A stretch of 64,000 nucleotides of DNA from Chloroflexota bacterium (GTDB taxonomy: Bacteria; Chloroflexota; Dehalococcoidia; UBA2247; RBG-13-53-26): assembly GCA_016875915.1 (NCBI GenBank), contig VGOM01000002.1:23263-87262 (forward strand). The letters are read 5' to 3'. A model generated the notes under the pieces. It was not told the DNA's origin. It saw only the letters and a program-made list of their open reading frames with translations, and ran no database searches. Both the position numbers and the translations under genes were made by a program. Each line of letters begins with the position of its first letter. Position 1 is the first letter of the stretch. This document shows positions 9,964 through 35,128 of the stretch, piece by piece.

Positions 9964-11427
9964 CTAGTCCCTCGATAGGGTACGGACCACCCTGCCTTCG
10001 CTGTCTCTGATATTGACCTGGAGTTGCATCTGGCCGGGCAACGCGTGGGTGGCGCAGGAGAGGCAGGGATCATAGGCCCGGAAGGCCATCTCCACCATAT
10101 TCAGGAAGCCTTCCTTCACCTCATGCCCCTTGACGAACCCCATGGCGGCCTTCTTCACCGAAAGGCAGATGGGCGCCGCGTTGTGCTGCGTGGCCACTAT
10201 CAGATTCACCTTCGTGATCAGACCGCGGTCATCGGTCTCATAGTGATGCAGCAGCGTGCCCCGGGCGGCCTCAACGCAGCCGATGCCGACCTTCTTCAGC
10301 TTCATATCCATGTTGCGGATGTCCTTGCCAGTCAGCAGAGGATCGCTGGCTATTCTCTGCAGATCCTCCGCGGCCTGCAAGGCCTCGATGAGCCGGGCCC
10401 AGTGGAAGGCCAGGGTGTGGTGGCTCGGCCTGCCTCCCAGCGTCTCAAACATCTGCTCGTATTCCTTGTGGGCCAGCGGCGTGGCCATCCCTTCAGCCAC
10501 GTTCAATCTCGCCAGCGGACCAACGCGGTACAGGGATGTACCGTCCCCTTCGATCAACCCGCTCCAGCCGACCTTCCTCAAATGGGTCAGTCTGATGTAT
10601 GTCCACGGCTCCACCCACTCTGCCATGTAGTCAACGTAGCGATGCGGGTCAAACAGGGCGCACTCCTTGCCCTGGGGATCCACGAGCCTGAGCTTGCCTT
10701 CGTAGAAGTTGGCCTTCTTGTCCTCATCCACCATACCCATGTAGTAGCTCTGGAGCTTGTAGGCATCGCTGAGCACCAGGTCAAGATAGGCCTTGTTCTC
10801 CAGGACAACGTCCTTGAACAGCTTCAGGGCAAAACGGGCGAACTCCACGGAATCGTCGGCCGTCTGCCTGATCCACTTCCTCTCCTCAACAGTGATCCCC
10901 CGGGACACGCCTCCGGGCAGCCCCCCCTCCGGATGAGGCGGCTTGCTGGCCACCAGCTTGATGATCTCGCGGCACCTCTTCCTTATGTCGATAACCTTGC
11001 CGCCGATCTCCAGTCCCACCTTCCTGATCACACCGATGATGTTCCTCTCGGCAGGGTCGGCGTCCGGCCCCACCACGAAGTCCGGCCCAGCGAGGAAGAA
11101 GAAGTGGATGTAGTGGTCCTCAACATAGAACGCATTGTAGTGGAGCTGCCTGATCAGCTTGGCCGTCGGCGTCGGTTCGACGCTGTACAGGTCATCCAGG
11201 GCTTTGGTGGCCGCCATGTTGTGCGGCGTGGGGCAAACCCCGCAGATGTTGGACACGATCCGGGGCATTTCCTCAGCTGGCCGGCCCAGGCAGAACCTCT
11301 CGAAACCCCTGAGCTCAACCACCTGCCAGTAGGCATCCTTTACATCTCCCTTGTCATCCAGGAAGATCTCGATCTTCCCATGCCCCTCGAGCCTGGTTAT
11401 CGGGTTTATGGTCAGTTTGCTGGTCAT
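9964..11427 (-). CDS. mvhA: [NiFe]-hydrogenase large subunit, group 3c (Mvh/Vhu-type)
   Basis: N-terminal RLEGHG and CGVCPTPH Ni-binding motifs and C-terminal DPCLSCATHAL, with a cleavable C-terminal extension. Confidence 0.92.
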   Translation of the reverse strand: MTSKLTINPITRLEGHGKIEIFLDDKGDVKDAYWQVVELRGFERFCLGRPAEEMPRIVSNICGVCPTPHNMAATKALDDLYSVEPTPTAKLIRQLHYNAFYVEDHYIHFFFLAGPDFVVGPDADPAERNIIGVIRKVGLEIGGKVIDIRKRCREIIKLVASKPPHPEGGLPGGVSRGITVEERKWIRQTADDSVEFARFALKLFKDVVLENKAYLDLVLSDAYKLQSYYMGMVDEDKKANFYEGKLRLVDPQGKECALFDPHRYVDYMAEWVEPWTYIRLTHLRKVGWSGLIEGDGTSLYRVGPLARLNVAEGMATPLAHKEYEQMFETLGGRPSHHTLAFHWARLIEALQAAEDLQRIASDPLLTGKDIRNMDMKLKKVGIGCVEAARGTLLHHYETDDRGLITKVNLIVATQHNAAPICLSVKKAAMGFVKGHEVKEGFLNMVEMAFRAYDPCLSCATHALPGQMQLQVNIRDSEGRVVRTLSRD

Positions 11428-11450
11428 AACTCAATGCTCCTCGTTCTCTT

Positions 11451-12416
11451 CTAGACTCTCTTCTTCCTCAAGAGGGATGTCGGCATCGAGAAGCGGTACA
11501 GGTAGCCGACGGGGTCGTCTATCCCGTCCATGACCTTCCTGATGTCCTCTTCCTTCTCGGCATCGACGATGGCCGCCAGGGCGGACACGAACTTGGCCCC
11601 GGAGTCCTCTACCCCCTCCACGGGTCCGAAGCAGCCCCGGCAGGGAAGATTGATATTGAGGCAAGCCTCTCCGCAGCCTGAGCGGGTGGCCGGTCCCAGG
11701 CAGAGCACGCCCTGCACCAGGAAACAGGTGTTGGGCTCCGCCTCGATCTGGTGGATCCTCTTGACCTCCTTGATGGTGAAACGGCTGGGTTTGGTCTTGT
11801 TGCGCGGACAGGTGTCGCACAGGGCTTTGTGCGGCGTCAGTGTCGAGCCCTTGGGGGGCAGCTTGCCTTCAAGGACGGCAGTCACCGCATTCATGATCAG
11901 GTCAGGAGGCGGGGGGCATCCCGGCAGGTAGTAGTCCACGTCGACGGCATGCTTGAGCGCATACACCTCACCGAAGAACTCCGGAAGCGTCAACTCCCGG
12001 CCATTCGAGGTGCATTTGGTCTGTGGGCGGCTGCCCTTGGGATTGACCACCGTTGGGGCGTCCCGGTACACCCAGTTGAAGATGTCTTCCTTCGTGGTCA
12101 GATTGGCCAGTCCGGGCGTCCCTCCAAAACAGGCGCAGGCTCCGAAGGCCAGCACCAACTGGGACTTCTTCCGGAGCAATCTGGCCACCTCTTCGTGATC
12201 GGAGTTCCTCACATTGCCGTTGATGATGCTCAGTGCGATCTCGCCGTCCTTCATGGCCTCCACGTGGTGGTACTTGAAGTCCAACGCCACCGGCCAGAGG
12301 ACGAAATCGACGGCGTCCACGACCTTGAGGACGGCCTCATTGATGTCCACGACAGCTTCGTCACAGCCCCCGCAGCCACCCAGCCAACAGATCGCCACTT
12401 TTGGTTTGTCTGCCAT
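11451..12416 (-). CDS. mvhG: [NiFe]-hydrogenase small subunit, group 3c
   Basis: Proximal-cluster Cys pattern (WLGGCGGCDEA...GACACFGG...LPGCPP) and a cytoplasmic type without a Tat signal. Confidence 0.9.
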   Translation of the reverse strand: MADKPKVAICWLGGCGGCDEAVVDINEAVLKVVDAVDFVLWPVALDFKYHHVEAMKDGEIALSIINGNVRNSDHEEVARLLRKKSQLVLAFGACACFGGTPGLANLTTKEDIFNWVYRDAPTVVNPKGSRPQTKCTSNGRELTLPEFFGEVYALKHAVDVDYYLPGCPPPPDLIMNAVTAVLEGKLPPKGSTLTPHKALCDTCPRNKTKPSRFTIKEVKRIHQIEAEPNTCFLVQGVLCLGPATRSGCGEACLNINLPCRGCFGPVEGVEDSGAKFVSALAAIVDAEKEEDIRKVMDGIDDPVGYLYRFSMPTSLLRKKRV

Positions 12417-12436
12417 CTTCGCTCCCTTTCACCAGT

Positions 12437-12862
12437 CTAGACCGCAGAGGCCTTCTCTGCGTGTTCCTTGGCCTTCTTCACCGGGCCCAGCTTGGCCAGC
12501 CTGTCGCTCATCTCCTTCACAATGGCGGGGATGGTCTTCCCCTCCGGGTCGAGAGACAGTCTGATCTCCAGCCTCTCCTTCTCGATTCCGTAGGATTCCA
12601 GCACCCGGCGCAGCAGATAGACCCTCTTCTTCGCCTCGAAGTTGCCGTCCTGGTAGTGACAATCGCCTTCCGGGCAGCCCAGGATCAGCACACCATCGGC
12701 ACCATGCTGGAAGGCACTGAGTATGTGGGTGGATTCGATCTTGCCGCTGCAGATGATGGGAATCCAGTTCTTCACCTGACGCGCCAGCGAGACCTCGTCA
12801 GCCACATAGCCCCAGCTAAACCTACAGGAGAAGCAGACCAACTTGGGTTCGTAGTTCTTCAT
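12437..12862 (-). CDS. mvhD: methyl-viologen-reducing hydrogenase delta subunit (MvhD) family protein
   Basis: FSCRFSWGY...ILGCPEGDCHYQDGN is the MvhD [2Fe-2S] signature. Confidence 0.85.
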   Translation of the reverse strand: MKNYEPKLVCFSCRFSWGYVADEVSLARQVKNWIPIICSGKIESTHILSAFQHGADGVLILGCPEGDCHYQDGNFEAKKRVYLLRRVLESYGIEKERLEIRLSLDPEGKTIPAIVKEMSDRLAKLGPVKKAKEHAEKASAV

Positions 12863-12895
12863 TTCTTCTCTCCCTAAGCCTCCTCTGGAGTAACT

Positions 12896-14686
12896 CTAGA
12901 GCGCGGCGCATGCCTCGAAGATGCGCTCTTCGGTGTCATCATCGACCAGCTTCCTGGCGTGTGACGGACAGGCCACTACGCACATGCCGCAGGACTTGCA
13001 CCGGAACATGTCCGTCGTCGATACGGTCTTGCCCTCCACATCGGTCAGCCTGGCCGAATCGTAGTTGCAGACATAGACACACATGCCGCAGCCACTGCAC
13101 CTCTTCTCGTCAACAGCCACCGAATAGAGCGACTTCTCAAAGCCTATGGAGATGCAGGCCTTGCAGGAAACGCACGGGCCGCAGGTGATACACCTCTTGG
13201 CCTCCTCCCTGGCTTCCTGCAGGGTGAAACCCTTCTCGAACAATTGGAAATGCATCCTCTTCTCAGGGGGTATCCAGGCTACCTCGGCTTCGGGCTTGTA
13301 GTCCCTCCTCAAGGGAATGCCAAACCCTTCGTAGTCCCTCTTCCGCCCCTCCCTCATGTCCAGGCCCCTGAGGAACCTCTCTATCGATTCAGCGGCGACC
13401 AATCCCTCCTTCATGGCCTCTACCATGAAGCCGATCCTCCTCACGTCGCCGCCCACAAAGACATAGCCCTTTCTCAGGCTCTGCAGGGTGAAGGGGTCCA
13501 CCACCAGCCGGCCCCGTTCGTCCAGTAGCCCCTCCCTCTGCAGGAAGGCCTTGTCCGGCACCTGCCCCACGGTGATGACCAGCATGTCACCTTCCATGTC
13601 GGTGCAGTCGGCACAGTCAAACTGGGGATTGAAGCCCTTTTCATCGAACACGCTGGTGCATTTGGGGCAGATGATCTTCTTGAATCTGCCGTGCTCACCA
13701 ACGATCTTCTGCACGCCGCGTGAGTACGTTATCGGTATCCCCTCTTCCCACGCCCCGCGGATTTCCTCCTCATCGGCAGGGATGCCATCCTTGGTGCCTT
13801 TGTCCTCACTCTCCAGACAGATGATGCTCACATCTCCACCCAGCCTCCTGGCCGTCCTGGCCACATCGAAGGCCACGTTGCCACCTCCGATGACCACCAG
13901 CCTCTTGCCCTTGAAGTAGTCCGCGGTGATATTGCCATGACTGACCTCATAGAGAAGGGTGTGGCCGTACATCACCCCGGACAGATCCTGCCCTTCCACG
14001 ACCTCTCCGTCGAAGGTCAGCACCCGGGGGTACGGCGTCCCCTTGGCCAGGAAGACAGCCCTGTAGCCTTCGTTTCTCAGCCTCTCCATCGTCAGTCGGC
14101 CCTCACCGACCCTGGACCCGAACTTGACGTCTATCCCGGCGATCCGCACCAGGCTGTCCATGGTGGTGGTCAGGACATCCTCCGGCAGGCGGTAGTTCGG
14201 TATGAGCCAAAGCGCGCCTCCCAGCCGCTTGGACTCCTCGAATATGGTCACCCGGTAGCCCTTCCTGCTCAGGGCATAGGCACACATCAGTCCGCCCGGC
14301 CCGCCACCGATGATGGCGATGTTCTCCTTGTCCTTGACGATGCTCAGTTCCTCTTTCTGTTTCAGATGCGGAGTGTAGTGATCAGAGAGGAACCTCTTGA
14401 GCAGCCTCCGCCTGATCGCCCCACCCTTGTTCTTGTAGTTGCACTCCAGCTCGCACAGTCCGCAGATATAGCCGCAGACGTTGAAGAAGGGATTCTTCTC
14501 ATACAGATAGTCGCCAATCTGAATGACCTCGTTCTTGGCCTGCTCCAACTCCTCCGGCAGCAGCGAGATGAGCACATTCGTCCGCTGGATGTCCTCGTTG
14601 ATGGGGCACTTGATCTGGCACGGTGGCAGGAGCTGCTTCATGGCTTCCTCAACCCGGGCCACTCCCTTGCTTTCGGTCCTCCACAT
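12896..14686 (-). CDS. GltD/NfnB/SudA-like FAD- and NAD(P)-binding oxidoreductase fused to a C-terminal poly-ferredoxin
   Basis: An N-terminal 2x[4Fe-4S] Cys region typical of GltD; two Rossmann GGG motifs (IIGGGPGG, VVIGGGNVAFD); and a C-terminal triple CxxCxxCxxxCP ferredoxin. GGAGG RBS. It is the first gene of the mvhD-G-A operon. Confidence 0.75.
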   Translation of the reverse strand: MWRTESKGVARVEEAMKQLLPPCQIKCPINEDIQRTNVLISLLPEELEQAKNEVIQIGDYLYEKNPFFNVCGYICGLCELECNYKNKGGAIRRRLLKRFLSDHYTPHLKQKEELSIVKDKENIAIIGGGPGGLMCAYALSRKGYRVTIFEESKRLGGALWLIPNYRLPEDVLTTTMDSLVRIAGIDVKFGSRVGEGRLTMERLRNEGYRAVFLAKGTPYPRVLTFDGEVVEGQDLSGVMYGHTLLYEVSHGNITADYFKGKRLVVIGGGNVAFDVARTARRLGGDVSIICLESEDKGTKDGIPADEEEIRGAWEEGIPITYSRGVQKIVGEHGRFKKIICPKCTSVFDEKGFNPQFDCADCTDMEGDMLVITVGQVPDKAFLQREGLLDERGRLVVDPFTLQSLRKGYVFVGGDVRRIGFMVEAMKEGLVAAESIERFLRGLDMREGRKRDYEGFGIPLRRDYKPEAEVAWIPPEKRMHFQLFEKGFTLQEAREEAKRCITCGPCVSCKACISIGFEKSLYSVAVDEKRCSGCGMCVYVCNYDSARLTDVEGKTVSTTDMFRCKSCGMCVVACPSHARKLVDDDTEERIFEACAAL

Positions 14687-14788: not shown

Positions 14789-14815
14789 GGGAGAGCCCCC
14801 GCTGCGGGCTCTCCC
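14789..14815 (-). promoter_or_regulatory. perfect 10-bp GC-rich stem-loop with a downstream U-run, in the leader/upstream region of the hydrogenase operon
   Basis: Minus-strand GGGAGAGCCC-gcagcgg-GGGCUCUCCC followed by GUUCGUUUUUGCGG, about 100 nt upstream of the ATG at 14686. This is terminator-like geometry in a 5' region. Confidence 0.35.
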
Positions 14816-15082: not shown

Positions 15083-15253
15083 ATGGAATGGCAGTTGATT
15101 GTAGCGCTGGTCATCATGATCCCGGTAATTCTTCTGCCGGTGGCCTTCGTGTGGTACCTCAACCTCGGGGGGATGCGCCTACTGCTTCGCGCCGTTCGGA
15201 GAGGCAAGGCGACCGACAAACAACGGGCGGTCGCCCCTGAGGAGGCAAGATAG
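15083..15253 (+). CDS. small single-pass membrane protein (56 aa), paralog A
   Basis: Hand translation: MEWQLIVALVIMIPVILLPVAFVWYLNLGGMRLLLRAVRRGKATDKQRAVAPEEAR. GGAGG RBS. About 80% nucleotide identity over the first ~90 nt to the ORF at 26692. Below the size cutoff of the ORF track. Confidence 0.6.
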   Translation: MEWQLIVALVIMIPVILLPVAFVWYLNLGGMRLLLRAVRRGKATDKQRAVAPEEAR

Positions 15254-15421: not shown

Positions 15422-16690
15422 GTGGGGCATATTGCCATGGTTAACGGCGCAGTAGCACCGTTCACAGGCGGCAACGAGGCTGAATGGGCCAGGTACCTCG
15501 AGAGGCTGCTCAAGACCGAGAGAGACCGCCTGATGTCGATCCTCAACTCCATGGAGGAGGGGGTCACCATCATCGGGCCGGACCACAAGATCCGGTTCAT
15601 GAACCCCAGCATGATGCGTCAGTTTGGTGACGGCACTGGCCTCCCCTGCTACAGACACCTCCGTGGCTACGATCAGCCCTGCCCCGACGTCTGCAGACTG
15701 CCGGAGGTGGTCAAGGGTGCTACGGAGCGATGGGAACACAGCTTTCCGGAAGGGGTGACCTACGAGGTGATCTCCTCCCCCTTTGCCGATACGGATCAGA
15801 CACCCTGCATGCTGTCAACGTTCAGGAATGTCACTCAGCAGAAGCAGATCCAGCTTGAGCTGATCAGGCTGAACCAGCTCAGATCAGAGGTCCTGGCCCA
15901 GATAACCAAGGACCTGGATCAGACCTCACATGAGGTGGTCCGCCTGCAGGAGGAGAAGCGCCGTTTCGTCCGCTTCCTGAGCGCCGTGGTACACGATCTC
16001 CGCGCTCCTCTGGCAGTCACTCAGAGCTGTCTGTGGACAATCCTGGAGGGCTACACCGGCGACGTCAACGACGAACAGAAGGACCTCCTGCAGAGGGGCA
16101 CCAGAAGGATCAATGACCTGATGGCACTTGTTGACGATCTGCTGGACATCCCCCGCATCGAATCGGGTCAACTGGTTCACGAGATGCAGGGCGTCTCCGT
16201 GAACGAAGTTGTCCGCCGGGCGCTCGATGGTCTGGACAGCCTGGCCGCAGAGAAGGGCATCAAGCTGGAGACGGCGCTGCCCGCCGTGACCCCCAGGGTC
16301 CATGGGTCAGCCCGGAGGCTGCAGCAGGTGGTCACCAATCTGGTGAACAACGCCATCGCCTACACCAACAAAGGGCAAGTGACGGTCAAGGTCTCTGAAG
16401 ACAACGGCAACGTCAAGGTTGAAGTCATGGACAGCGGCATCGGCATACCGGCGGACGATCTGTCGCGGCTCTTCGAGGATTTCTTCCGGGCCAGCAATGT
16501 GTCGGCCAAGGGTACCGGACTGGGACTGTCAATATCGAAGAGGATTGTCGAGGCCCATGGAGGCAGAATCTGGGTGGAGAGCCCGTGCCCCGAGACCAAG
16601 AAGGGCAGCAAGTTCAGCTTCACCCTGCCCAAGAGGACCGCGGTGCTGGCCGACGGAACAGCCAATGGGAATACTGGCAGACCTGCTTGA
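15422..16690 (+). CDS. cytoplasmic PAS-domain sensor histidine kinase with conserved 4-Cys PAS motif
   Basis: No TM helix. PAS domain with C-x10-C-x3-C...PCML; HisKA (AVVHDLRAPL) and HATPase_c (GTGLGLSISKRIVEAHGG). Paralog of the kinase at 23659. Confidence 0.85.
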   Translation: MGHIAMVNGAVAPFTGGNEAEWARYLERLLKTERDRLMSILNSMEEGVTIIGPDHKIRFMNPSMMRQFGDGTGLPCYRHLRGYDQPCPDVCRLPEVVKGATERWEHSFPEGVTYEVISSPFADTDQTPCMLSTFRNVTQQKQIQLELIRLNQLRSEVLAQITKDLDQTSHEVVRLQEEKRRFVRFLSAVVHDLRAPLAVTQSCLWTILEGYTGDVNDEQKDLLQRGTRRINDLMALVDDLLDIPRIESGQLVHEMQGVSVNEVVRRALDGLDSLAAEKGIKLETALPAVTPRVHGSARRLQQVVTNLVNNAIAYTNKGQVTVKVSEDNGNVKVEVMDSGIGIPADDLSRLFEDFFRASNVSAKGTGLGLSISKRIVEAHGGRIWVESPCPETKKGSKFSFTLPKRTAVLADGTANGNTGRPA

Positions 16691-16724: not shown

Positions 16725-17204
16725 ATGGAGAAGAAAGCCAAGATCCTGCTGATCGACGACGATCCCGACTTCGTGGAGGTAACCAGGAAGGTCCTGGAAA
16801 AGGGCGAGTCCTACCAGGTCGTCATTGCCGTCAACGGCAAGGAGGGCCTAGAGAAGGCCAAGAAGGAGAAGCCTGACCTCATCCTCCTGGACATCCTCAT
16901 GCCGGTGACAGATGGCTTCGGCTTCGCGGAACAGTTCAGCAAAGAGAGGTCACTGCGCAACATCCCCGTCCTGGCTCTGACCAGCTTCTCCACCTCTCTC
17001 GGGGAGCCATTTGCCTTTGACGTGGCGGAATTCATCAGGAAGCCCGTCGGCCCCCGAGACCTGATCGAGAGGGTGGAGAAGCACCTCAAACGAGCCGCAG
17101 AGAAGGCAGAGACGCGCGCTGTCAAGGTAAGCCCCAAGAGGCGTCCGGCCTCAGCCAAGCCCAGGCCGAAGGCCCCGGCCAGGACCAGCAAGCGTCCCAA
17201 GTAG
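16725..17204 (+). CDS. response regulator, receiver domain only, with a Lys/Pro/Ala-rich basic C-terminal tail
   Basis: CheY-like receiver (LLIDDDPDF...DLILLDILMP...) and then KVSPKRRPASAKPRPKAPARTSKRPK. Confidence 0.85.
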   Translation: MEKKAKILLIDDDPDFVEVTRKVLEKGESYQVVIAVNGKEGLEKAKKEKPDLILLDILMPVTDGFGFAEQFSKERSLRNIPVLALTSFSTSLGEPFAFDVAEFIRKPVGPRDLIERVEKHLKRAAEKAETRAVKVSPKRRPASAKPRPKAPARTSKRPK

Positions 17205-18454: not shown

Positions 18455-20452
18455 ATGGCCAGGATAGGCGTCTTCATCTGCCACTGCGGCACCAACATCG
18501 CCGGCACCGTCGACATCGGCCGTGTGGTTGAGGCAGCCGGTCAGATGCCTATGGTGGTCCACGCCGCCGACAACAAGTACAACTGCAGCGAACCGGGGCA
18601 AGCCCTGATCCGCGACGCCATCGCGGAGCACAGGCTGAGCCGGGTGGTCATCGCCGCCTGTTCGCCGCGGATGCACGAGAATACCTTCCGCAAGACCGTG
18701 GCTGCCGCGGGGCTGAACCCGTATCTGCTGGAGATGGCCAATCTGCGTGAGCACTGCAGCTGGGTCCACAGCGATGGGAAGGAAGCGGCCACCACCAAAG
18801 CCATCGAGCTGATCCGGATGGCCGTGTCCAAGGTGGCCCGCCACGAGAAGCTCTTCCCGAAGCAGGTGTCCCTCACCAAGCGGGCACTGGTCATTGGTGG
18901 GGGCATCTCGGGCATCCAGGCGGCCCTGGACATCGCCAATTCCGGCTACAAGGTGGTCCTGGTCGAGCGCGAGCCGACCATCGGCGGCCGCATGGCCCAA
19001 CTGGACAAGACATTCCCTACCCTGGACTGCTCCTCGTGCATCCTCACGCCCAAGATGGTGGATGTGGCCCAGCATGCCAACATCACCCTGCTGACCAGCG
19101 CGGAGGTGAAAGAGGTCAAGGGCTTCGTGGGCAATTTCGAGGTGAGCATTGTCCAGAAGGCCAGGAAGGTTGACCATGCCAAGTGCACCGGGTGCGGAAT
19201 ATGCTGGCAGAAATGCCCGGAGAAGGCCCCCTCGGAGTTCGACATGGGTCTGGGGAAGCGCTCCGCCATCTACATCCCCTTCCCGCAGGCGGTGCCGCCG
19301 AAGCCGGTGATTGACACCGCCAACTGCCGCTACCACAAACACCTGCGCTTCGTGGAGGAGAAGCGGGAGGGCAAGCCGCCACCCCAGTGCCGCGTCTGCG
19401 AGAAACTCTGCCCGGTGGGCGCCATTGACTGGGAGCAGAAGGACGAAGTCCTGACGGAGAAATTCGGAGCCATCATTGTGGCCACGGGCTACAAGGCCTT
19501 CGAGCCCGCGGTCTATGCAGAGCTGGGCTACGGCAAGCACCCCGACGTGATCACCGGACTGGAGATGGAGAGGATGATGAGCGCCTCCGGGCCAGCCGGC
19601 GGCGACGTGACCCGTCCCTCCAACGGCGAGCATCCCAGGGACGTGGTCTTCCTCACGTGCATTGGCTCCAGGGATGAACAGAGGGGCCGGACCTACTGCA
19701 GCAAGGTCTGCTGCATGTACATCGCCAAACACGCCATCATACTGAAGGAGCACTATCCGGACGTGCAGTGCTACGTCTTCTACATGGACGTCCGGGCAGT
19801 GAGCAAGGACTACGAGGAATTCTACAAGCGGGCCCAGGAGAGCGGCGCCATATACATCCGGGGCAAGGTGTCGGGAATACGGCAGGAGGATGGCCGGCTC
19901 GTCGTGCGGGGCGAGGACACGCTGCTGGGGGAGATGGTCGAGATCCCGGCCGATATGGTAGTGCTGGCCGTGGGCATGGAGCACAGTCCGGGATCGGCCG
20001 AGTTGGCCCAGGCCTTGAAGGTCAGCTATGACATCAACGAGCTGTTCATCGAGGCCCACCCCAAGCTGCGTCCCGTGGAGACGATGAGCGATGGGGTCTT
20101 TGTGGCCGGAGCCTGCGTGGGCCCCCGGGACATCCCTGAATCGGTAGCCAGCGGGAGCGCCGCCGCCGCCAAGGTGGCTGCCCTATTCAGCCAGGAATTC
20201 CTCACCACCGACCCCATGGTGGCCAGTGTGGACCAGATGAAATGCGGCGGCTGCCTGCTGTGCACCAAGGTCTGCCCCTTCAAGGCCATCGACACTCAGG
20301 TACTCCGGGATGGCCGGACCGTGGCCGTGGTCAACGAGAGCCTGTGCAAGGGCTGCGGCCTGTGTGTTGCCACCTGCCGGTTCGGTGCGGCCAACCTGCG
20401 CGGGTTCACGCAGCAGCAGCTGCTGGCTGAGGTGACATCTCTATGGCAATAG
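18455..20452 (+). CDS. hdrA: heterodisulfide reductase subunit A-like flavoprotein
   Basis: N-terminal GVFICHCGTNIAGTVD motif, FAD motif VIGGGISGIQAALD, an inserted ferredoxin and a C-terminal ferredoxin (CGGCLLCTKVCP...CKGCGLCVATC). Confidence 0.9.
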   Translation: MARIGVFICHCGTNIAGTVDIGRVVEAAGQMPMVVHAADNKYNCSEPGQALIRDAIAEHRLSRVVIAACSPRMHENTFRKTVAAAGLNPYLLEMANLREHCSWVHSDGKEAATTKAIELIRMAVSKVARHEKLFPKQVSLTKRALVIGGGISGIQAALDIANSGYKVVLVEREPTIGGRMAQLDKTFPTLDCSSCILTPKMVDVAQHANITLLTSAEVKEVKGFVGNFEVSIVQKARKVDHAKCTGCGICWQKCPEKAPSEFDMGLGKRSAIYIPFPQAVPPKPVIDTANCRYHKHLRFVEEKREGKPPPQCRVCEKLCPVGAIDWEQKDEVLTEKFGAIIVATGYKAFEPAVYAELGYGKHPDVITGLEMERMMSASGPAGGDVTRPSNGEHPRDVVFLTCIGSRDEQRGRTYCSKVCCMYIAKHAIILKEHYPDVQCYVFYMDVRAVSKDYEEFYKRAQESGAIYIRGKVSGIRQEDGRLVVRGEDTLLGEMVEIPADMVVLAVGMEHSPGSAELAQALKVSYDINELFIEAHPKLRPVETMSDGVFVAGACVGPRDIPESVASGSAAAAKVAALFSQEFLTTDPMVASVDQMKCGGCLLCTKVCPFKAIDTQVLRDGRTVAVVNESLCKGCGLCVATCRFGAANLRGFTQQQLLAEVTSLWQ

Positions 20453-20874
20453 ACTTCGAACCCAGGATTGTGGGCTTCCTCTGCAACTGGTGCAGCTACG
20501 CCGGGGCTGATATGGCCGGCACGGCACGGATCTGCTACCCCTCGAACATCCGCGTCATCAGGGTGCCCTGCTCGGCCAGGATCGACCCCCTCCTGGTGGT
20601 CAAGGCCTTTCAACTCGGCGCCGACGGCGTGCTGGTGGCGGGCTGCCACCCCGGCGACTGCCACTACACCGAAGGTAACTACTACTCCCGGCGCCGCTTC
20701 GCGCTGCTCTATCCCTTCCTGGAATACCTCGGCATCGAGAAAGGCCGGCTCCGACTGGAATGGGTGTCAGCCTCCGAAGGGAGGAAGTTCTCACATGTGG
20801 TGTCCTCCTTCACCGAGGGCCTGGTCAGCCTGGGCCCCCGGGAGAAGGTCCCGGCAGAAGGAGCGCTGCCATGA
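20443..20874 (+). CDS. MvhD/FlxD-like [2Fe-2S] protein
   Basis: FLCNWCSYAGADMAG...VAGCHPGDCHY. Overlaps the hdrA stop by 10 nt and the next gene by ATGA. Confidence 0.85.
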   Translation: MAIDFEPRIVGFLCNWCSYAGADMAGTARICYPSNIRVIRVPCSARIDPLLVVKAFQLGADGVLVAGCHPGDCHYTEGNYYSRRRFALLYPFLEYLGIEKGRLRLEWVSASEGRKFSHVVSSFTEGLVSLGPREKVPAEGALP

Positions 20875-23658: not shown

Positions 23659-24960
23659 ATGTACGAAGATCCTTCAGATTCCGGAGACAACCGGAGAATG
23701 CTTCGTGCGCATGGCCCTCATCTGGTCCTGGTGCTCCTGGCGACTGGGGCACTGCTCTGGCATTCGCCCGGCTCAGTCGGCCTCCCGGCAGCGGGCGTCT
23801 TCGGATTCGCCGGGCTGACCGTCCTTCTGGCCATGGTCAGCAGCGTCCTCGGTCCTTTCGCCGGAGGCAACGAGGCGGAATGGACCGTGTACCTGGAGAA
23901 GGCCCTCAAGGCAGAGAGGGACAGGCTGATGGCCATGCTCAACACCATGGAGGAAGGGGTGGCCATCATCGGCCCGGACCACCGGATCCGCTTCATGAAT
24001 CCCAGCATGGTCAGGGACTTCGGCCACGGCATTGGCGCGCTGTGCCACCGGCATCTCTACGGCTTCGACGAGCCGTGCAACGAGGTGTGCAAGCTCCCAC
24101 AGGTGATCAGGGGCTCCACGGAGAGGTGGGACTACACCTTCGCCGACGGCCGGACCTACGACATGATCGCCGCACCGTTCGCCGACTCCGACGAGAGTCC
24201 CTGCATGCTGGCCACCTACAGGAACGTCACCCGGCAGAAGCAGGTTGAGCTGGAGCTAATCAAGCTCAACCGCCTCAAGTCCGAGCTTCTGTCCAACGTG
24301 TCACACGAACTCAAGTCACCGCTGACCTCCATCAAGGGGATCATCAGCAGCCTGCTGCAGGAGGACATCAGATGGGACGATGCCACCGGCAAGATGCTGC
24401 TGGCCGGAATAAGCGAGGAATCGGACCGGTTGGCCAGCCTGGTGACCAACCTGCTGAACATGAGCAAGCTCGAGGCGGGGGTGTGGAATCCCGAGAAGGA
24501 GGCCTGCGACATATCGGAGATCATTCGTGAGACCCTGGAACGCCAGAAGTGGGTCCACAAGAGCCACACGTTCGAGGCCAACGTCGCCCCGGACCTGCCG
24601 GAGATCTCTGCGGACTCCAACCAGATCAAGCAGGTCCTGATCAATCTGCTGGAAAATGCCGCGGCCTACTCTGAAGAAGGCACCAGGATCGTAGTGGCGG
24701 CCAGGGCGGACGGCAGAGAGATCGAGGTGTCGGTGTCCGACCAAGGCATCGGCATGCCGGCGGAGGAACTGGAGAAGGCCTTTGAGAAGTTCTACCGCGG
24801 CAGCCAGAAGCGCCGCCGCCCCGGAGGCACCGGACTGGGCCTGGCCATCTGCAAATCCATTGTCATGGCTCACGGTGGGCGGATCTGGGCCGAGAGCCAA
24901 CTTGGCAGAGGAAGCACCTTCCGCTTCACCCTGCCCCCAGGCGAGCAGGCCAAGCACTAG
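23659..24960 (+). CDS. membrane-anchored PAS sensor histidine kinase (paralog of the 15422 kinase; same 4-Cys PAS motif)
   Basis: Two N-terminal TM segments; the PAS core has ~60% identity to the kinase at 15422, including C-x10-C-x3-C...PCML. HisKA and HATPase_c domains. The start codon is uncertain (23659 or 23698). Confidence 0.85.
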   Translation: MYEDPSDSGDNRRMLRAHGPHLVLVLLATGALLWHSPGSVGLPAAGVFGFAGLTVLLAMVSSVLGPFAGGNEAEWTVYLEKALKAERDRLMAMLNTMEEGVAIIGPDHRIRFMNPSMVRDFGHGIGALCHRHLYGFDEPCNEVCKLPQVIRGSTERWDYTFADGRTYDMIAAPFADSDESPCMLATYRNVTRQKQVELELIKLNRLKSELLSNVSHELKSPLTSIKGIISSLLQEDIRWDDATGKMLLAGISEESDRLASLVTNLLNMSKLEAGVWNPEKEACDISEIIRETLERQKWVHKSHTFEANVAPDLPEISADSNQIKQVLINLLENAAAYSEEGTRIVVAARADGREIEVSVSDQGIGMPAEELEKAFEKFYRGSQKRRRPGGTGLGLAICKSIVMAHGGRIWAESQLGRGSTFRFTLPPGEQAKH

Positions 24961-24974: not shown

Positions 24975-25664
<690 letters not shown>

Positions 25665-25688: not shown

Positions 25689-26354
25689 TCACGGGATATC
25701 CTCCAGGGTGACCCAGCCCTCCTTCAGCGCCCTGACCACCGCCTCGGTCCGGGAACTGACCTGCAGTTTGTTGAAGATGTGCCCCAGGTGCCCCTGCACC
25801 GTCCTGATGCTCAGACAGAGATCTCTGGCGATATCGGCGTTACTGAGACCGTGGGTGGCCATCCTGAGTATCTCCTTCTCCCGGTCGCTGAGCACCTCCG
25901 CGGACTTGGCCGGCGACGCCTTTGCACCGCCGGCCACGAAGCGATTGAGCACCTTCTTGGCCACCGCCGGATGCAGCACTGACTCGCCGCCGTGCACCGC
26001 ACGCACCGCGTCTATGAACTCGCGGCTGCGTACGCTCTTGAGCAGATACCCGGCAGCCCCGGCCTCCAGCAGACTGAAGACGAACTGATCATCGTCATAG
26101 GCGGACAGTATCAGGATGGTCACCGAAGGGCAGCGGGCCTTGATCTGTCTGGTCGCCTCTATGCCGTCCAGCTTCGGCATCGATATGTCCACGATGGCAA
26201 CATCGGGCCTGGTCTCGTCCGCCAGTTTGACCGCCTCTTCCCCATCAGCAGCCTCACCCACCACCTCCATATCCCCCTCTTGTTCCAGCATCCTCCTGGT
26301 CCCTTCCCTCACCACAGCATGATCATCCGCTATCAGCACACGTATCTTGCCCAC
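25689..26354 (-). CDS. NarL/LuxR-family response regulator (paralog of 37223-37888)
   Basis: Receiver plus LuxR helix-turn-helix (ILRMATHGLSNADIARDL). The ORF track extends it to 26399. The preferred start is the GTG at ~26354, which has a GGAGAGG RBS and an extended -10 TGCTATAAT 26 nt upstream. Confidence 0.85.
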   Translation of the reverse strand: MGKIRVLIADDHAVVREGTRRMLEQEGDMEVVGEAADGEEAVKLADETRPDVAIVDISMPKLDGIEATRQIKARCPSVTILILSAYDDDQFVFSLLEAGAAGYLLKSVRSREFIDAVRAVHGGESVLHPAVAKKVLNRFVAGGAKASPAKSAEVLSDREKEILRMATHGLSNADIARDLCLSIRTVQGHLGHIFNKLQVSSRTEAVVRALKEGWVTLEDIP

Positions 26355-26377
26355 GTTGCCTCTCCTCTGCCTAGGGC

Positions 26378-26388
26378 GGATTATAGCA
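26378..26388 (-). promoter_or_regulatory. extended -10 promoter element TGCTATAAT for the LuxR-type regulator
   Basis: The minus strand reads TGCTATAATC. The identical element sits at the same spacing upstream of the paralogous gene at 37911-37921. Confidence 0.45.
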
Positions 26389-26429
26389 TCGCGCCTCACC
26401 GCCCCCCAGAGGGGAACTACCCGATGCAG

Positions 26430-26691: not shown

Positions 26692-26874
26692 ATGGACTGG
26701 GAGTTCATTGTAGCGCTGGTGGTGGCCATTCCCATCGTTCTTCTGCCCGTGGCGTTCGTGTGGTACCTCAATATCGGCGGCATCTACGCAACCATACGAG
26801 CTGCGCGGCGCAGGAGGGCGGCACGCCGCGAAAGGGAGGCCGCGTCCACTAGACAGGGACAAGGAGGAGCCTGA
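26692..26874 (+). CDS. small single-pass membrane protein (60 aa), paralog B
   Basis: MDWEFIVALVVAIPIVLLPVAFVWYLNIGG..., then an Arg-rich tail. GGAAGGAGGAG RBS. Its stop overlaps the next start (TGATG). Confidence 0.6.
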   Translation: MDWEFIVALVVAIPIVLLPVAFVWYLNIGGIYATIRAARRRRAARREREAASTRQGQGGA

Positions 26875-27293
26875 TGGCGGACAGGAAGATTGAACAGATC
26901 CGGGAGATTGTCAGTGGAATCGCTGAACCCGACGAAATCGCGGAAGTGGACAGAGTCGTCGGTGAAGCCAAAGGCAGAATCCTGATGGAGTCGAAGCGGG
27001 GGTTCTGGGCCGGCAAGACCCCGTGCTGGGAAATGGTCCGTTGCCCGGAGGCCATCAAGAACGACTGCCCGGCATCAAAAGGCCACTCAGTGGCCTGCTG
27101 GGAGATCGCAGGGACCTACTGCAAGCTGCCTTCGGGACACGACACCAGTATCTGTGAGGTATGCCGGGTGTACAAGAGGTGGGGCGATGGAGAGGTCATC
27201 GCCATCAAGCTCGATACCACAGGGACCACAGGCAGCGCAGCGGCTGAGACCCGCACAAAGGCGGCTTCAGCCAAGGCAAAGGGCGGGAAGTAA
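26874..27293 (+). CDS. cysteine-rich protein of unknown function (8 Cys, two CWE(M/I) motifs)
   Basis: Cysteine array: ...CWEMVRCPEAIKNDCPASKGHSVACWEIAGTYCKLPSGHDTSICEVCRVY... Translationally coupled to the upstream small membrane protein, with an A/K-rich C-terminal tail. Confidence 0.55.
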   Translation: MADRKIEQIREIVSGIAEPDEIAEVDRVVGEAKGRILMESKRGFWAGKTPCWEMVRCPEAIKNDCPASKGHSVACWEIAGTYCKLPSGHDTSICEVCRVYKRWGDGEVIAIKLDTTGTTGSAAAETRTKAASAKAKGGK

Positions 27294-27462: not shown

Positions 27463-27975
27463 ATGACCAAGGCCGAACTAGAATCACTGGTGAAGAGAGA
27501 GGCTGGCACAGGGTACGCCCCCCGCATCTTCAGGGACATCCAGAAGGTCATTGAAGACACCGGAGGGCGGTCGGGGGCATTGATCAGAGTCCTGCAGCAA
27601 GCCCAGGGACTGGTGGGGTATCTGCCGCCGCCGGTGCTCATGACCATCTCCAGGGACCTGAACATACCTCTCAGCGAAGTGAACGGCATAGTCAGTTTCT
27701 ACAGCTTCTTCACCACCGTTCCCCGCGGGAAGTATGTCGTTCAGGTGTGCCTGGGTACATGCTGCTACGTCAGAGGCGGGCAGAGGATCCTGGATGTCCT
27801 GAAGAAGGAGTACGGGCTTGAACCCGGCGATACGTCGCCTGACGGACTGCTGTCCGTGGACACCATCCGCTGTCTGGGGGCCTGCGCCCTGGCCCCGGTG
27901 GTTACTCTGGACGGACAGGTGCACAGAAGGGTGAAGGCCACCGGTGTGAAAGAACTAGTCAGCCACTGCAAATAG
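27463..27975 (+). CDS. hoxE: NuoE-like [2Fe-2S] thioredoxin-fold diaphorase subunit (HoxE/HndA-like)
   Basis: CLGTCC...C...C motif of NuoE/24-kDa-subunit type. Start at MTKAELESL, with an AGGAGG RBS. Confidence 0.85.
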   Translation: MTKAELESLVKREAGTGYAPRIFRDIQKVIEDTGGRSGALIRVLQQAQGLVGYLPPPVLMTISRDLNIPLSEVNGIVSFYSFFTTVPRGKYVVQVCLGTCCYVRGGQRILDVLKKEYGLEPGDTSPDGLLSVDTIRCLGACALAPVVTLDGQVHRRVKATGVKELVSHCK

Positions 27976-31141: not shown

Positions 31142-31144
31142 GAG

Positions 31145-33124: not shown

Positions 33125-33134
33125 GAGGTATAAC

Positions 33135-33671
33135 GTGGCCAAACCGAAGATCGCTACTGCGTGGCTAGCCGGGTGTGCTGGATGTCATATGTCCTTCCTT
33201 GACATCGATGAGGCGATCATCGAGGTCGCCAAACTGGTGGAGATCACCGCCAGTCCCATCACCGACTTCAAGGAGTTCCCCGCTGTTGACGTCGGCATCG
33301 TCGAAGGCGCCGTCAATACCACGGACAACGTCGAGGTAGTGCACAAGCTGCGGCACGCCTGCAAGATACTCATGGCCTGGGGTGACTGCGCCTGCTTCGG
33401 GGGCATACCTACCATGCGCAATATGTTCGACAAGAACGAACTGCTCCGGCGGGCTTTCGTCGAAACCGAGAGCACCGCGAAGGGGAGGATCCCCTCCTCT
33501 GACGAGCTGCCCCGCCTTCTGGATCAGTGCAAGCCGGTGCACAACGTCGTCAAGGTGGATTGCTTCGTCCCCGGCTGTCCCCCCAGTGCCAAAGCGATTC
33601 ACTACGCCCTGGTGGAGCTCCTCAATGGCAGGATCCCGGTGCTGCCCGCCGAAATGATGAAGTTCGACTGA
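33135..33671 (+). CDS. hoxY: [NiFe]-hydrogenase small subunit, group 3d (HoxY)
   Basis: GTG start after a GGAGG RBS. WLAGCAGCHMSF...WGDCACFGG...VPGCPP; short (178 aa), HoxY-type. Confidence 0.88.
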   Translation: MAKPKIATAWLAGCAGCHMSFLDIDEAIIEVAKLVEITASPITDFKEFPAVDVGIVEGAVNTTDNVEVVHKLRHACKILMAWGDCACFGGIPTMRNMFDKNELLRRAFVETESTAKGRIPSSDELPRLLDQCKPVHNVVKVDCFVPGCPPSAKAIHYALVELLNGRIPVLPAEMMKFD

Positions 33672-33697
33672 ATGTGCAGAGTTGTGGAGGCATTCAA

Positions 33698-35128
33698 ATG
33701 ACCAAGAAGATCGTCATCGAGCCGATTACCCGTATCGAGGGCCACGGGAAGGTGACCATCGAACTGGACAACGACGGGAATGTTGCCGACACCAGGTTCA
33801 ATGTCGTGGAGTTCCGGGGGGTGGAGAAGTTCTGTGAGGGGCGGCTCTTCTGGGAAATGCCACTGATCACTGCACGGGTCTGCGGCATCTGCCCCGTCAG
33901 CCATCATCTGGCCGCCGCCAAGGCCGGCGATGCCATCCTGGGCGTTGAACTGCCCCCGGCGGCCAAGAGACTGCGCGAGCTGCTCCACATGGCCCAGTAC
34001 GTCCAATCCCATTCTCTTCACTTCTTCCACCTGGCCAGCCCCGATCTGCTCCTGGGTATGGACGCCGATCCGGCCAAACGGAACGTCATCGGGCTCATCG
34101 CCGAGAAACCTGAAATCGCAGTCAAAGGGGTGATGCTGCGCAAGTTCGGCCAGGAGCTGATTGAAGCCCTGGGCGGCAAGAAGGTGCATCCCAACGCTGC
34201 CATCCCGGGAGGGATGAACAAGGCCCTCTCCCATGCGGAGCGGGACAGGTTCCTGGGGCAGGCAGACCGGGTCATCGCTGACATCGGCGTTGCCCTGGAC
34301 ATCGCCAAGGACTACTTCGCCCACCACGGGCGCGAAGCGGCTACCTTCGCCGTGTTCCCGTCCTGCTATATGGGACTGGTGGGCCAGAGCGGGAATCTCG
34401 AGCTGTACGACGGCACTCTGAGGGTCAGAGACAGCAAGGGGTTCATCCTCGAAGATAACGTGGATCCCAGCGACTACCTGTCCATCATCGAGGAAACGGT
34501 GGAGGACTGGTCCTACCTCAAGTTCCCCTACTACAAGAAGTGGGGCTACCCCGCCGGCACCTACCGCGTCGGCCCGCTGGGCAGGCTGAACGTGGCGGAC
34601 AGGATTGCCACGCCTCTGGCCGACAAGGAGTTCCGCGCCTTCAAGAAGCTCGGAAACGACGGGATAGTCGAGGGTTCGCTGTACTACCACTATGCCCGGC
34701 TCATCGAGGCCCTGTACGCCGCCGAGAGGCTGAAGGCACTGCTGGAGGATGAACTCACCTGTTCAACTGAGATAAACGTCAACTCCTCGACCTTCAACGA
34801 AGAGGGTATCGGGGTCATCGAGGCCCCCAGGGGCACGCTGATCCATCACTACTGGGTGGACCGCAACGGGACAGTGAGGAAGGCCAACCTCATCGTGGCC
34901 ACCGGGCACAACAACGGGGCCATCAACCGCGCCGTTCACGAGGTGGCCAAGGAGTACATCAAGGGGACCAAGATCGCCGAGGGAATGCTGAACCGGGTGG
35001 AGGCAGCCATTCGCTGCTACGACCCCTGTCTCTCCTGTTCAACGCACGCCCTGGGGCAGATGCCCCTGAGAATCGAAGTGGTCTCCCCCTCCGGGGAGGT
35101 CTTGGACTGCTCTCAGACCCGGCCGTAG
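33698..35128 (+). CDS. hoxH: [NiFe]-hydrogenase large subunit, group 3d (HoxH)
   Basis: Start at [17 protein letters not shown] with a [16 protein letters not shown] and C-terminal [12 protein letters not shown], plus a C-terminal extension for endopeptidase processing. The ORF track entry starts further upstream. Confidence 0.92.

Follow-up and report, generated by a model that had tools for sequence, protein, structure and literature searches.

The described systems closest to the genes considered here are the NiFe-HydABCSL hydrogenase of Acetomicrobium mobile (7T2R/7T30), the StnABC/NfnABC complexes (8OH5, 9BOV, 9N5U), the group 3c complex MvhAGD-HdrABC (5ODC), FlxABCD-HdrABC of Desulfovibrio and other anaerobes, the NfnSL/NfnAB enzymes and the group 3d Hox hydrogenase of Hydrogenophilus thermoluteolus (5XF9). 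We compared these systems with a stretch of 64,000 nucleotides from a Chloroflexota bacterium of the Dehalococcoidia (GenBank assembly GCA_016875915.1, contig VGOM01000002.1, positions 23,263 to 87,262), called the window below. An earlier note on this DNA had proposed that about 25 kb of it (9964-35128) is a redox island in which a group 3c-like hydrogenase, an Flx-Hdr-like complex and a group 3d hydrogenase are separated only by sensor-kinase/regulator pairs and small-protein modules. Gene calling by third-position GC bias (GC3), with identities assigned through Pfam, NCBIfam and PDB sequence searches, confirmed three modules in this range, and their identities hold at the family level: an Mvh-type hydrogenase (module A), an Flx-Hdr complex (module B) and a HydABCSL-like hydrogenase (module C; Table 1). 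The gene calls likewise place only sensor and regulator genes and small proteins between them.

The reading we prefer, and hold to be moderately probable, is that the region is a vertically inherited, lineage-specific neighbourhood of three separable cytoplasmic redox modules, each with its own sensor genes, in which A would be Mvh-NfnL-like, B of the Flx-Hdr type and C of the Bfu type with a GltD exit. The presence of 3c- and 3d-type modules in Chloroflexi is not new, since, according to a preprint on the Chloroflexi supergroup, hydrogenases of groups 3c and 3d are the most abundant there. Not found described in the literature searched were the combination of Bfu signatures in a "3d" enzyme with a GltD fusion to the B subunit and loss of B3/B4, the Mvh-NfnL-like operon, and the neighbourhoods of sensors and two-CW proteins. 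This is an ordinary neighbourhood that holds two uncharacterised, widespread variants of known enzyme kinds, and its arrangement as an island matters less than those variants.

The BfuB-GltD hydrogenase of module C

In BfuB of A. mobile, the B2 site comprises Cys438, Cys/Thr476, His525, Cys531 and Cys536 (PMC9304861), and its His is missing from the non-bifurcating homologues HoxF/Nqo1 (Schut et al. 2022, PMC9304861). Bfu proteins also carry the NADH motif DEGDPGAFMxR and the FMN motif GAGAFVCGE, compared to EPGxFKDR and GAGAY in non-bifurcating enzymes (PMC9304861, Supplementary Fig. 10). In current cryo-EM models, the B3/B4 domain is the link by which low-potential electrons leave the mobile C1 cluster for ferredoxin (PMC12018979). 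A 2022 census of the Bfu family listed only six NiFe-Bfu members, from Synergistetes and Euryarchaeota (PMC9304861).

Module C is a five-gene operon in the order hydC-B-A-S-L, with gaps of 3-26 nt, in which BfuA, BfuC, HydS and HydL are encoded alongside BfuB as in the Bfu family. All five subunits best-match or co-best-match chains of A. mobile NiFe-HydABCSL (7T2R), including a long NuoG-like HydA and a short HydS. HydB matches 7t2r_B with 733 bits over residues 38-578, HydL matches 7t2r_D with 611 bits (481 for Hox 5xf9_D and 414 for MvhA), and HydC matches HydC of the FeFe enzyme (7q4v_C, 125 bits) and 7t2r_C (124 bits) about equally. The complete B2 ligand set is present in HydB at the aligned positions (Cys474, Thr512, His561, Cys567 and Cys572), including the diagnostic His, together with the Bfu NADH motif, CNGDEGDPGAFMNR at residue 228, and the Bfu FMN motif, GAGAFVCGEETALL at residue 314.

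The C-terminal part of HydB sets module C apart from the A. mobile enzyme. The 1051-residue protein consists of a BfuB part (residues 1 to ~577) and an NfnB/GltD-like part of about 470 residues (~578-1051), and its alignment with 7t2r_B ends at residue 542 of 597. No ferredoxin-like B3/B4 domain (two CX2CX2CX3CP) was found in HydB, which has zero CxxCxxCxxxC motifs in 1051 residues. Its C-terminal half matches StnC (8oh5_C), 9bov_A, NfnA (9n5u_A) and NfnB (4ylf_B) at 350-400 bits. Module C further differs from the A. mobile system in gene order, in lacking an endopeptidase gene (hydD) in the cluster and in its host, a member of the Chloroflexota rather than of the Synergistetes. In StnABC and NfnABC, as in module C, a BfuBC core is combined with a GltD/NfnB-like FAD module of the NADPH-binding kind. 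In those complexes, however, the GltD-like module is inserted in the NuoG-like A subunit and feeds the mid-potential path, and BfuB retains B3/B4, whereas in module C the GltD-like part takes the position expected for B3/B4 at the C-terminal end of the B subunit, with the A subunit connecting to a NiFe hydrogenase. The GltD-like modules of C and of A both match NfnB/NfnL (160-366 bits), including the Fer4_20, FAD and NADPH domains; unlike in NfnSL/NfnAB, no NfnA/NfnS small subunit is encoded here, and the modules are attached to hydrogenases.

The group 3d label given in the earlier note understates module C, a soluble, NuoEFG-linked NiFe hydrogenase with bifurcating Bfu signatures. Module C could instead be an ordinary non-bifurcating, NAD(P)-reducing group 3d enzyme of the Hox type, in which the GltD-like domain merely widens nucleotide specificity. 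Its gene order is similar to hoxEFUYH, it shares with Hox the NuoE/F/G-like diaphorase subunits, and the B3/B4 ferredoxin-reduction domain is absent from it. Against this, every subunit matches Hox (5xf9) less well than A. mobile, as for HydL and HydS (Table 1) and the HydB subunit region (82 versus 273 bits); HydA is the long form of 659 residues, whereas HoxU is short; and Hox is without the Bfu-diagnostic His, DPGAFM and GAGAF that HydB has. We consider a Hox-type enzyme unlikely and treat module C below as Bfu-type.

The BfuB-GltD fusion is not confined to this genome. Full-length homologues with at least 62% identity form >120 sequence clusters, mostly proteins from metagenome-assembled genomes (MAGs) of Chloroflexi/Dehalococcoidia named "FAD-dependent oxidoreductase", "hydrogenase" or "NuoF", and the fusion lies within the same five-gene operon in four of the loci retrieved from relatives (loci L085, L087, L092 and L093). 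We found no described BfuB-GltD or NuoF-GltD NiFe hydrogenase in the literature searched, the coverage of which was incomplete, so that this absence is not proof. In loci L088 and L089 (9486-15846 and flanks), a HydC and HydB-GltD pair 62-76% identical to that of module C is followed by an 897-residue FdhA-like subunit with a Molydop_binding domain. Downstream of this set lie two folD genes, fhs and genes for carbon monoxide dehydrogenase/acetyl-CoA synthase, and upstream lie genes for Fur, CooT and a CbiMNQO-type transporter. It looks like a formate dehydrogenase version of the enzyme in a Wood-Ljungdahl context.

As a mechanism for module C, we propose that HydL would oxidise H2 and that HydS and the clusters of HydA would carry the electrons to the B1-FMN-C1 site. 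There the path would divide: NAD+ would be reduced at the FMN by one branch, and the other would lead through the GltD-type clusters to FAD and on to NADP(H). The overall reaction would be 2 H2 + NAD+ + NADP+ <-> NADH + NADPH, with its direction set by H2 pressure. From quoted potentials of -414 mV for H2 at 1 bar, ~-280 mV for NAD and ~-380 mV for NADP (PMC9304861), rough arithmetic puts the crossover of this reaction near 10^-3 bar H2, and the enzyme could therefore run toward H2 formation at the low H2 typical of anoxic sediments and toward reduction at higher H2.

A bolder proposal is possible, and we advance it tentatively. In it, hydCBASL would be a new functional class of Bfu enzyme, with the B3/B4 exit replaced by an NfnL-type [4Fe-4S]2-FAD module and H2 bifurcated to NAD+ and NADP+ without ferredoxin or, in reverse, NADH and NADPH jointly driving H2 formation at low H2. 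Module A, assembled from Mvh parts and an NfnL-like flavoprotein, would act as a second enzyme of the H2:NADP(H) type, perhaps coupled to ferredoxin, and BfuB-GltD would serve Dehalococcoidia as a general core for NAD(H)/NADP(H) bifurcation, used with a formate dehydrogenase subunit as well, as in L088. Few members of the Dehalococcoidia are in culture; the group abounds in anoxic sediments, aquifers and lakes. If the predicted couplings hold, these bacteria tie H2 directly to the NADPH pool via two architectures new to biochemistry and structural study. Chloroflexota genes labelled "group 3d/Hox" or "group 3c/Mvh" in metagenomes may carry the wrong physiological couplings. The fusion is also a natural experiment on what the low-potential branch needs, with B3/B4 swapped out across hundreds of sequence clusters and the signatures of the bifurcation site kept.

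The Mvh-NfnB-like module A and the Flx-Hdr module B

Module A is a four-gene operon with gaps of 20-33 nt. Like the group 3c complex MvhAGD-HdrABC, it encodes an MvhA-like large subunit, an MvhD and a long MvhG-type small subunit with a C-terminal cluster-binding extension, which matches MvhG (5odc_E) over its full length with 224 bits, compared to 76 bits for the short HydS (7t2r_E). Its MvhD-like protein is 38% identical to FlxD of module B and has the same Cys pattern. Unlike in the group 3c complex, there is no HdrABC in the operon, and the fourth gene encodes a protein that is NfnB/GltD-like and shares only a C-terminal ferredoxin domain with HdrA. The designation "group 3c-like" overstates the likeness, as an Hdr partner is missing from the operon.

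This fourth protein, of 596 residues, begins with a Fer4_20 domain and ends with a 2x[4Fe-4S] ferredoxin domain; between the two lie FAD and NAD(P)H domains and a CxxC..CxxC insert, such that Fe-S motifs flank the flavin domains on either side. Its PDB matches are to NfnA, NfnL and GltD at 90-178 bits (178 for NfnA 9n5u_A and 160 for NfnI-L 5jca_L). Homologues form >120 clusters at 79-95% identity, and every one is 596-597 residues long. We rejected an assignment as HdrA, with which only the C-terminal ~58 residues, the ferredoxin domain, align (HdrA 575-632). The insert within the NAD(P)H domain has the form CxxC-x14-CxxC, as in a zinc ribbon or rubredoxin (13606-13671, residues 340-361). As with the BfuB-GltD fusion, no described Mvh-NfnB complex was found in the literature searched, where incomplete coverage means that absence is not proof.

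Could module A be the hydrogenase partner of HdrA in module B, as in a classical Mvh-Hdr complex, with the 596-residue protein as an accessory? Module A is Mvh-like and has an MvhD, module B is only 2.6 kb away, and mvhDGA lies directly upstream of hdrA in the more distant loci L021 and L024. On the other hand, the four-gene operon with the 596-residue protein is conserved with no hdr genes nearby in L084, L090 and L091, and module B brings an MvhD-like protein (FlxD) and an NAD(P)H entry (FlxA) of its own. The hydrogenases beside hdrA in L021 and L024 are just 55-56% identical to that of module A; across four loci of more distant Dehalococcoidia (L021, L024, L014 and L020), the Mvh-like hydrogenase directly upstream of hdrA-flxDCBA is a different one, 52-62% identical. 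The hdr-free operons on the one hand and the mvhDGA-hdrA loci on the other indicate two Mvh lineages, of which module A represents the one without a link to Hdr. We find an Mvh-Hdr partnership of A and B distinctly unlikely. For module A as an Mvh-NfnL-like enzyme, H2 would be oxidised at the NiFe site and electrons would pass through three MvhG clusters and the [2Fe-2S] of MvhD to one Fe-S arm of the 596-residue protein and on to FAD and NADP+; ferredoxin might be served by a branch through the other Fe-S arm.

FlxABCD-HdrABC, the counterpart of module B, has the order hdrA-flxDCBA in Desulfovibrionaceae, Firmicutes and Bacteroidales. Module B contains the complete component set (HdrA, FlxD, FlxC, FlxB and FlxA) in one cluster, with junctions that overlap or span 24 nt, and is of the known Flx-Hdr type, as judged from its sequence. 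Among the loci retrieved, which come from Chloroflexota, Firmicutes, Bacteroidales and Desulfobacterota, >60 keep the order hdrA-flxD-flxC-flxB-flxA, and the genes of the HdrA homologues, 54-94% identical, are each followed by flxDCBA. Module B departs from the described complex in that HdrB and HdrC are fused in a protein of 384 residues, encoded upstream of hdrA, with 2x[4Fe-4S] and two CCG domains, the features of both HdrC and HdrB. Among the retrieved loci, such a fusion upstream of hdrA is limited to the closest relatives; HdrB/HdrC fusions have been reported for marine Chloroflexi (PMC5736913). By analogy with the family, FlxA would oxidise NAD(P)H; FlxB, FlxC and FlxD would relay the electrons to the flavin of HdrA, from which they would reach ferredoxin and the HdrCB disulfide site.

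Two variants of this complex were seen in other loci. In L005 (13634-16993), and also in L006, L010, L013, L021 and L024, three adjoining frames just upstream of flxDCBA encode an N-terminal part of HdrA, a GltD-like protein 45-47% identical to the GltD half of HydB, and a C-terminal part of HdrA. The three frames resemble a single HdrA that an NfnB-like module has split or interrupted. In L014 (7540-9698) and L027 (13378-15515), NuoE-like and NuoF-like (BfuC/BfuB-like) genes lie between flxC and flxB of an hdrA-flx cluster, which suggests Flx-Hdr variants carrying a Bfu-type core.

Conservation, origin and sensors of the neighbourhood

The nearest genomes are Chloroflexota/Dehalococcoidia MAGs, with HdrA identities of 94% in "bin_27" and 90% in RBG_13_53_26. 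Gene order is identical to that of the window in L044 (94% identity) and L086 (96%), and L087 (81-85%) keeps flxCBA-HK2-RR2-RR3-orf56-hydCBASL-HK3. In RBG_13_53_26, the second-closest genome (88-90%), module A is followed by a GAF-PAS kinase gene and then by orf56-orf139-hydC-hydB, and module B is on another contig. Locus L090, with cluster A proteins 78-84% identical, has the backbone M48-LemA-comEC-comEA-ATPgrasp-A-orf56-HK3-RR4-acad-CoAT-CoAT-mtnA-mtnP in common with the window and is without the 19.7-kb block from HK1 to hydL. Each module also occurs alone: C in L085 and L093, B in L005, L006 and L010, and A in L090. The full three-module arrangement is thus confined to close relatives (L044, L086 and L087), and its modules are separable. 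Pairwise adjacency of the A, B and C module types recurs in several other Dehalococcoidia loci.

A further set of genes, which the window does not have, accompanies some of these modules in relatives (L004, 123-7913; L085, 17485-23156). It encodes NrfD, an MvhD-ferredoxin fusion, a 4Fe-4S subunit and a molybdopterin oxidoreductase of the Psr-like kind. In RBG_13_53_26 this set precedes module B and has a large HdrD-like protein of 679 residues after it, and in L085 it comes after module C. It may be a membrane-linked partner module.

The earlier note had asked whether the region is conserved in relatives or horizontally acquired. The arrangement is conserved only among close relatives, as described above, and acquisition as a genomic island is very improbable. 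The 19.7-kb block from HK1 to hydL, present or absent between the otherwise syntenic backbones of the window and L090, is what would be expected of an island. However, the composition of every module is indistinguishable from that of flanking housekeeping genes (GC3 of 0.79-0.84; correlation of relative synonymous codon usage with flanking genes of 0.92-0.98), in agreement with the impression of the note that no GC or codon-usage deviation is apparent, and this argues against recent transfer. A search of the island junctions and Pfam scans of the window found no tRNA gene, integrase or flanking direct repeats; repeats in the window occur only between the paralogous genes HK1/HK2, RR3/RR4 and orf56a/orf56b. 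For every module, the nearest homologues come from other Dehalococcoidia. The region accordingly shows none of the marks of a genomic island (deviant composition, mobility genes, or tRNA or direct-repeat junctions), and by its sequence the cluster is not a transferred island but, more probably, a vertically inherited, lineage-specific and variable neighbourhood.

Alternatively, three unrelated operons may have been brought together by rearrangements, with no functional or regulatory tie. Consistent with juxtaposition by chance, each module is solitary in some relatives, A even on the same backbone in L090; in RBG_13_53_26, A and C are on one contig and B is on another; and each module has its own sensors. 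Yet the order of module B, the second two-component system, RR3 and module C recurs in L086 and L087, and A lies next to C in L084. In addition, mvhDGA lies directly upstream of hdrA-flxDCBA in L021, L024, L014 and L020, nuoE/F-like genes are found inside the flx cluster in L014 and L027, and the regulators of the locus are mutually paralogous (HK1/HK2, RR3/RR4 and orf56a/b). Chance juxtaposition appears somewhat unlikely to us.

Of the three two-component systems that the earlier note counted in the range, two complete pairs of histidine kinase (HK) and response regulator (RR) genes are there, HK1-RR1 and HK2-RR2, with the orphan RR3; the third pair, HK3-RR4, lies just outside (35185-37948). 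The note had further suggested that dedicated redox sensors coordinately regulate the three modules. The adjacency of sensors and modules recurs across relatives and supports dedicated regulators. HK2-RR2 adjoins hdr-flx in L086 and L087 and also, in another, divergent arrangement, in L037. In L086, in L087 and, at only 59-66% identity, in L092, the genes for a two-CW protein and hydCBASL have a divergently oriented LuxR regulator gene and a GAF-PAS-HisKA_3 kinase gene as neighbours. In L090 and L091, cluster A has an RR4-HK3-type kinase-LuxR pair immediately upstream, and in L091 a related kinase and a receiver-only regulator come after A. Orthologues or paralogues of HK3 adjoin cluster A in L090, L091 and L084 and hydCBASL in L087 and L092. 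The sensors look dedicated to individual modules, but joint control of A, B and C is not supported, as modules have their own sensors and occur alone. From the conserved adjacency, we predict that HK2-RR2 would act on B, that HK3, RR3/RR4 and the two-CW protein would act on C and ancestrally on A, and that HK1-RR1 would act on A and/or B.

A search of the modules' intergenic regions for operator motifs found none common to A, B and C. It yielded a single shared element, the 9-mer GTGTGAGAA, extending to GTGTGAGAAyATAG, upstream of the paralogues HK1 (15311-15324) and HK2 (23644-23657). Only 2 nt separate the HK2 copy from the start codon, so that the transcript would have a very short leader or none.

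HK1 and HK2 are 43% identical, and their PAS-like domains (15437-15900 and 23830-24300) contain four Cys conserved in all homologues examined, C-x10-C-x3-C and a fourth ~45 residues on. The spacing of these Cys resembles that of Fe-S or metal-binding PAS sensors. The protein of orf139 keeps the pattern CWE...C...CP...CW.I.GTYC...C..C.VY in four homologues, and its match to the NCBIfam two_CW_domain (NF045718), with 19.6 bits and E 8.9e-4, is below the 35-bit cut-off. It is kept immediately upstream of hydC down to 42% identity (the L092 homologue is at 6970-7347) and may be an Fe-S or metal-binding co-sensor. We infer that the cysteines of HK1/HK2 and of orf139 fit redox or metal sensing.

Several points weigh against the reading of the locus as an inherited set of three modules with the couplings proposed above. 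The synteny data come from fragmentary metagenome contigs. Consensus promoter and terminator counts are no higher than the shuffled expectation, so the operon limits are drawn from gene spacing and orientation. The large subunit of cluster A is no closer to MvhA than to Bfu-type HydL, with bit scores that are about equal (373 for 7t2r_D and 361 for MvhA 5odc_F, followed by 346 each for two further group 3 large subunits from methanogens, 9sw2_F, an F420-non-reducing subunit A, and 9sfi_g, whose entry names it F420-reducing hydrogenase alpha, and by 319 for Hox 5xf9_D). The specificity of the two GltD-like modules for NADP(H) over NAD(H) is taken from homology. Finally, as the chief alternative for module C, ferredoxin could dock on the GltD-type clusters as in NfnSL, and the enzyme could then still be a ferredoxin-dependent bifurcating enzyme with an extra NADPH port.

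Maturation, gene map and minor features

As the earlier note observed, both NiFe large subunits carry C-terminal extensions. Each has the four Ni-Fe cysteines and ends in DPCLSCxTH followed by 26 residues. Pfam scans of the called genes across all 64 kb of the window gave zero matches to hyp or hydrogenase endopeptidase families, as the note had stated. Given the tails, the processing functions must be encoded outside the window.

Table 1. Features of the three modules and of the intervals between and beside them, in window coordinates.
Feature	Position	Strand	Content or evidence
Module A	9964-14686	-	NiFe large subunit, MvhG-type small subunit, MvhD, 596-aa Fer4_20/FAD/NAD(P)H/2x[4Fe-4S] protein
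NiFe large subunit, 487 aa	9964..11427	-	Pfam NiFeSe_Hases; CGVCPTPH and DPCLSCATH motifs; 26-aa C-terminal tail
MvhG-type small subunit, 321 aa, long form	11451..12416	-	PDB search
MvhD-like [2Fe-2S] protein, 141 aa	12437..12862	-	Pfam FlpD 3.8e-30
596-aa NfnB/GltD-like flavoprotein	12896..14686	-	Pfam, PDB search, Cys motifs
Hairpin and T-run, leader of cluster A	14789..14815	-	10-bp GC-rich stem; ~100 nt upstream of A start codon
A-B interval	15083-17204	+	orf56a, HK1, RR1
orf56a, single-transmembrane (TM) peptide	15083..15253	+	called on JGI contig; one hydrophobic segment; orf56b paralogue
HK1, soluble histidine kinase, Cys-rich PAS-like sensor	15437..16690	+	Pfam HisKA, HATPase_c; no TM segment
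RR1, receiver-only response regulator	16725..17204	+	Pfam Response_reg only
Module B	17276-23550	+	fused HdrC/HdrB, HdrA, FlxD (MvhD), FlxC, FlxB, FlxA
Fused HdrC/HdrB, HdrD-like, 384 aa	17276..18430	+	Pfam CCG 2.8e-34 and Fer4; NCBIfam TfrB, HdrC, HdrB partial matches
HdrA, 665 aa	18455..20452	+	NCBIfam HdrA2 851 bits, residues 3-662
FlxD (MvhD-like)	20443..20874	+	Pfam FlpD 7.8e-52
FlxC-like Fe-S protein, 286 aa	20871..21731	+	Pfam Fer4, FrhB_FdhB_C; start from JGI gene call and ATGA overlap
FlxB-like (Fer4_22; AsrA/HydB-beta-like)	21728..22720	+	Pfam Fer4_22 2.2e-33; NCBIfam AsrA, ShyB partial matches
FlxA-like FAD/NAD(P)H/[2Fe-2S] protein	22717..23550	+	Pfam FAD_binding_6, NAD_binding_1, DHODB_Fe-S_bind; NCBIfam hydrogenase gamma, AsrB-like
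B-C interval	23659-27293	mixed	HK2, RR2, RR3, orf56b, orf139
HK2, histidine kinase, N-terminal TM segment, Cys-rich PAS-like sensor	23659..24960	+	Pfam, TM, alignment
RR2, OmpR-type response regulator	24975..25664	+	Pfam Response_reg and Trans_reg_C
RR3, LuxR/NarL-type regulator	25689..26399	-	Pfam; divergent from orf56b-orf139-hydCBASL
orf56b, small TM peptide	26692..26874	+	homologue alignment
orf139, Cys-rich two-CW-like protein	26874..27293	+	8 conserved Cys; alignment with L084, L086, L037, L092 orf125
Module C	27463-35128	+	NuoE-like, 1051-aa NuoF-like/GltD-like fusion, NuoG-like, small and large NiFe subunits
HydC/BfuC, NuoE-like, 170 aa (from Met19 of longest open reading frame)	27463..27975	+	Pfam 2Fe-2S_thioredx; orthologues 170 aa
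HydB/BfuB fused to NfnB/GltD-like module, 1051 aa	27986..31141	+	PDB search, motifs
HydA/BfuA, NuoG-like with cofactor-less molybdopterin-type domain, 659 aa	31145..33124	+	Pfam; 7t2r_A full length, 430 bits
HydS small subunit, 178 aa, short form	33135..33671	+	7t2r_E 205 bits vs Hox 5xf9_C 155
HydL large subunit, 476 aa (from ATG with GGAGG site)	33698..35128	+	DPCLSCSTH; 26-aa tail
13-bp perfect inverted repeat	35150..35183	.	between convergent hydL and HK3; marks operon boundary
HK3, kinase, 3 TM segments, GAF-PAS-HisKA_3	35185..37191	-	Pfam; outside 9964-35128
RR4, LuxR/NarL-type, adjacent HK3 partner	37223..37948	-	Pfam

G+C content is ~62% across the window, and the modules lie among housekeeping genes. 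To their left are comEC, comEA and the genes for LemA and an M48 peptidase; to their right are genes for an acyl-CoA dehydrogenase and CoA-transferases, methionine-salvage and S-adenosylmethionine-cycle genes, and a ribosomal-protein/rpoA/secY cluster. The protein of 9964-11427 is found in identical form on JGI metagenome contigs (3300020083, 58 kb). An Rfam scan of 9000-38500 at E<=0.1 returned zero RNA families.

No same-strand gene precedes the hairpin at 14789-14815 in the window. In L084 a comparable GC hairpin with a T-run aligns with it and has a same-strand kinase gene upstream. The hairpin is probably a relic terminator of the kinase gene present there in relatives; alternatively, it may be an attenuator. 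The region upstream of cluster A, aligned across five loci, is poorly conserved and gave no convincing leader element other than the hairpin shared with L084. Between orf139 and the probable hydC start (27463), a GGGGGC...GCCCCC hairpin is followed by GTTTCTTT (27377-27410); it may be a terminator or attenuator dividing the small-protein unit from hydCBASL.

The two small transmembrane peptides of the window, orf56a and orf56b, belong to a family of ~56-60 residues with the pattern M[ED]W[QE]xIVALVxxIPxxLLPVAFVWYLNxGG. In relatives, members occupy regulatory gaps beside HK2-RR2 or one of the clusters A and C, and the two-CW protein often comes immediately after them. A 78% nucleotide repeat links orf56a to 26692-26783, and its homologues are found in L044, L084, L086, L087, L090 and L037. 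RR3 is 81% identical to RR4, and RR1 ends in a tail of 35 residues rich in Lys, Pro, Arg and Ala, with no recognised output domain.

At the right edge of the locus, the longest open reading frames of RR4 and of the acyl-CoA dehydrogenase overlap at position 37948, and a strong promoter-like site, TTGACA-18-TACAAT (11/12 consensus match), lies at 37982-38011. Given this site and the shared position, the dehydrogenase probably starts further downstream than its longest open reading frame; its orthologue in L090 has 391 residues.

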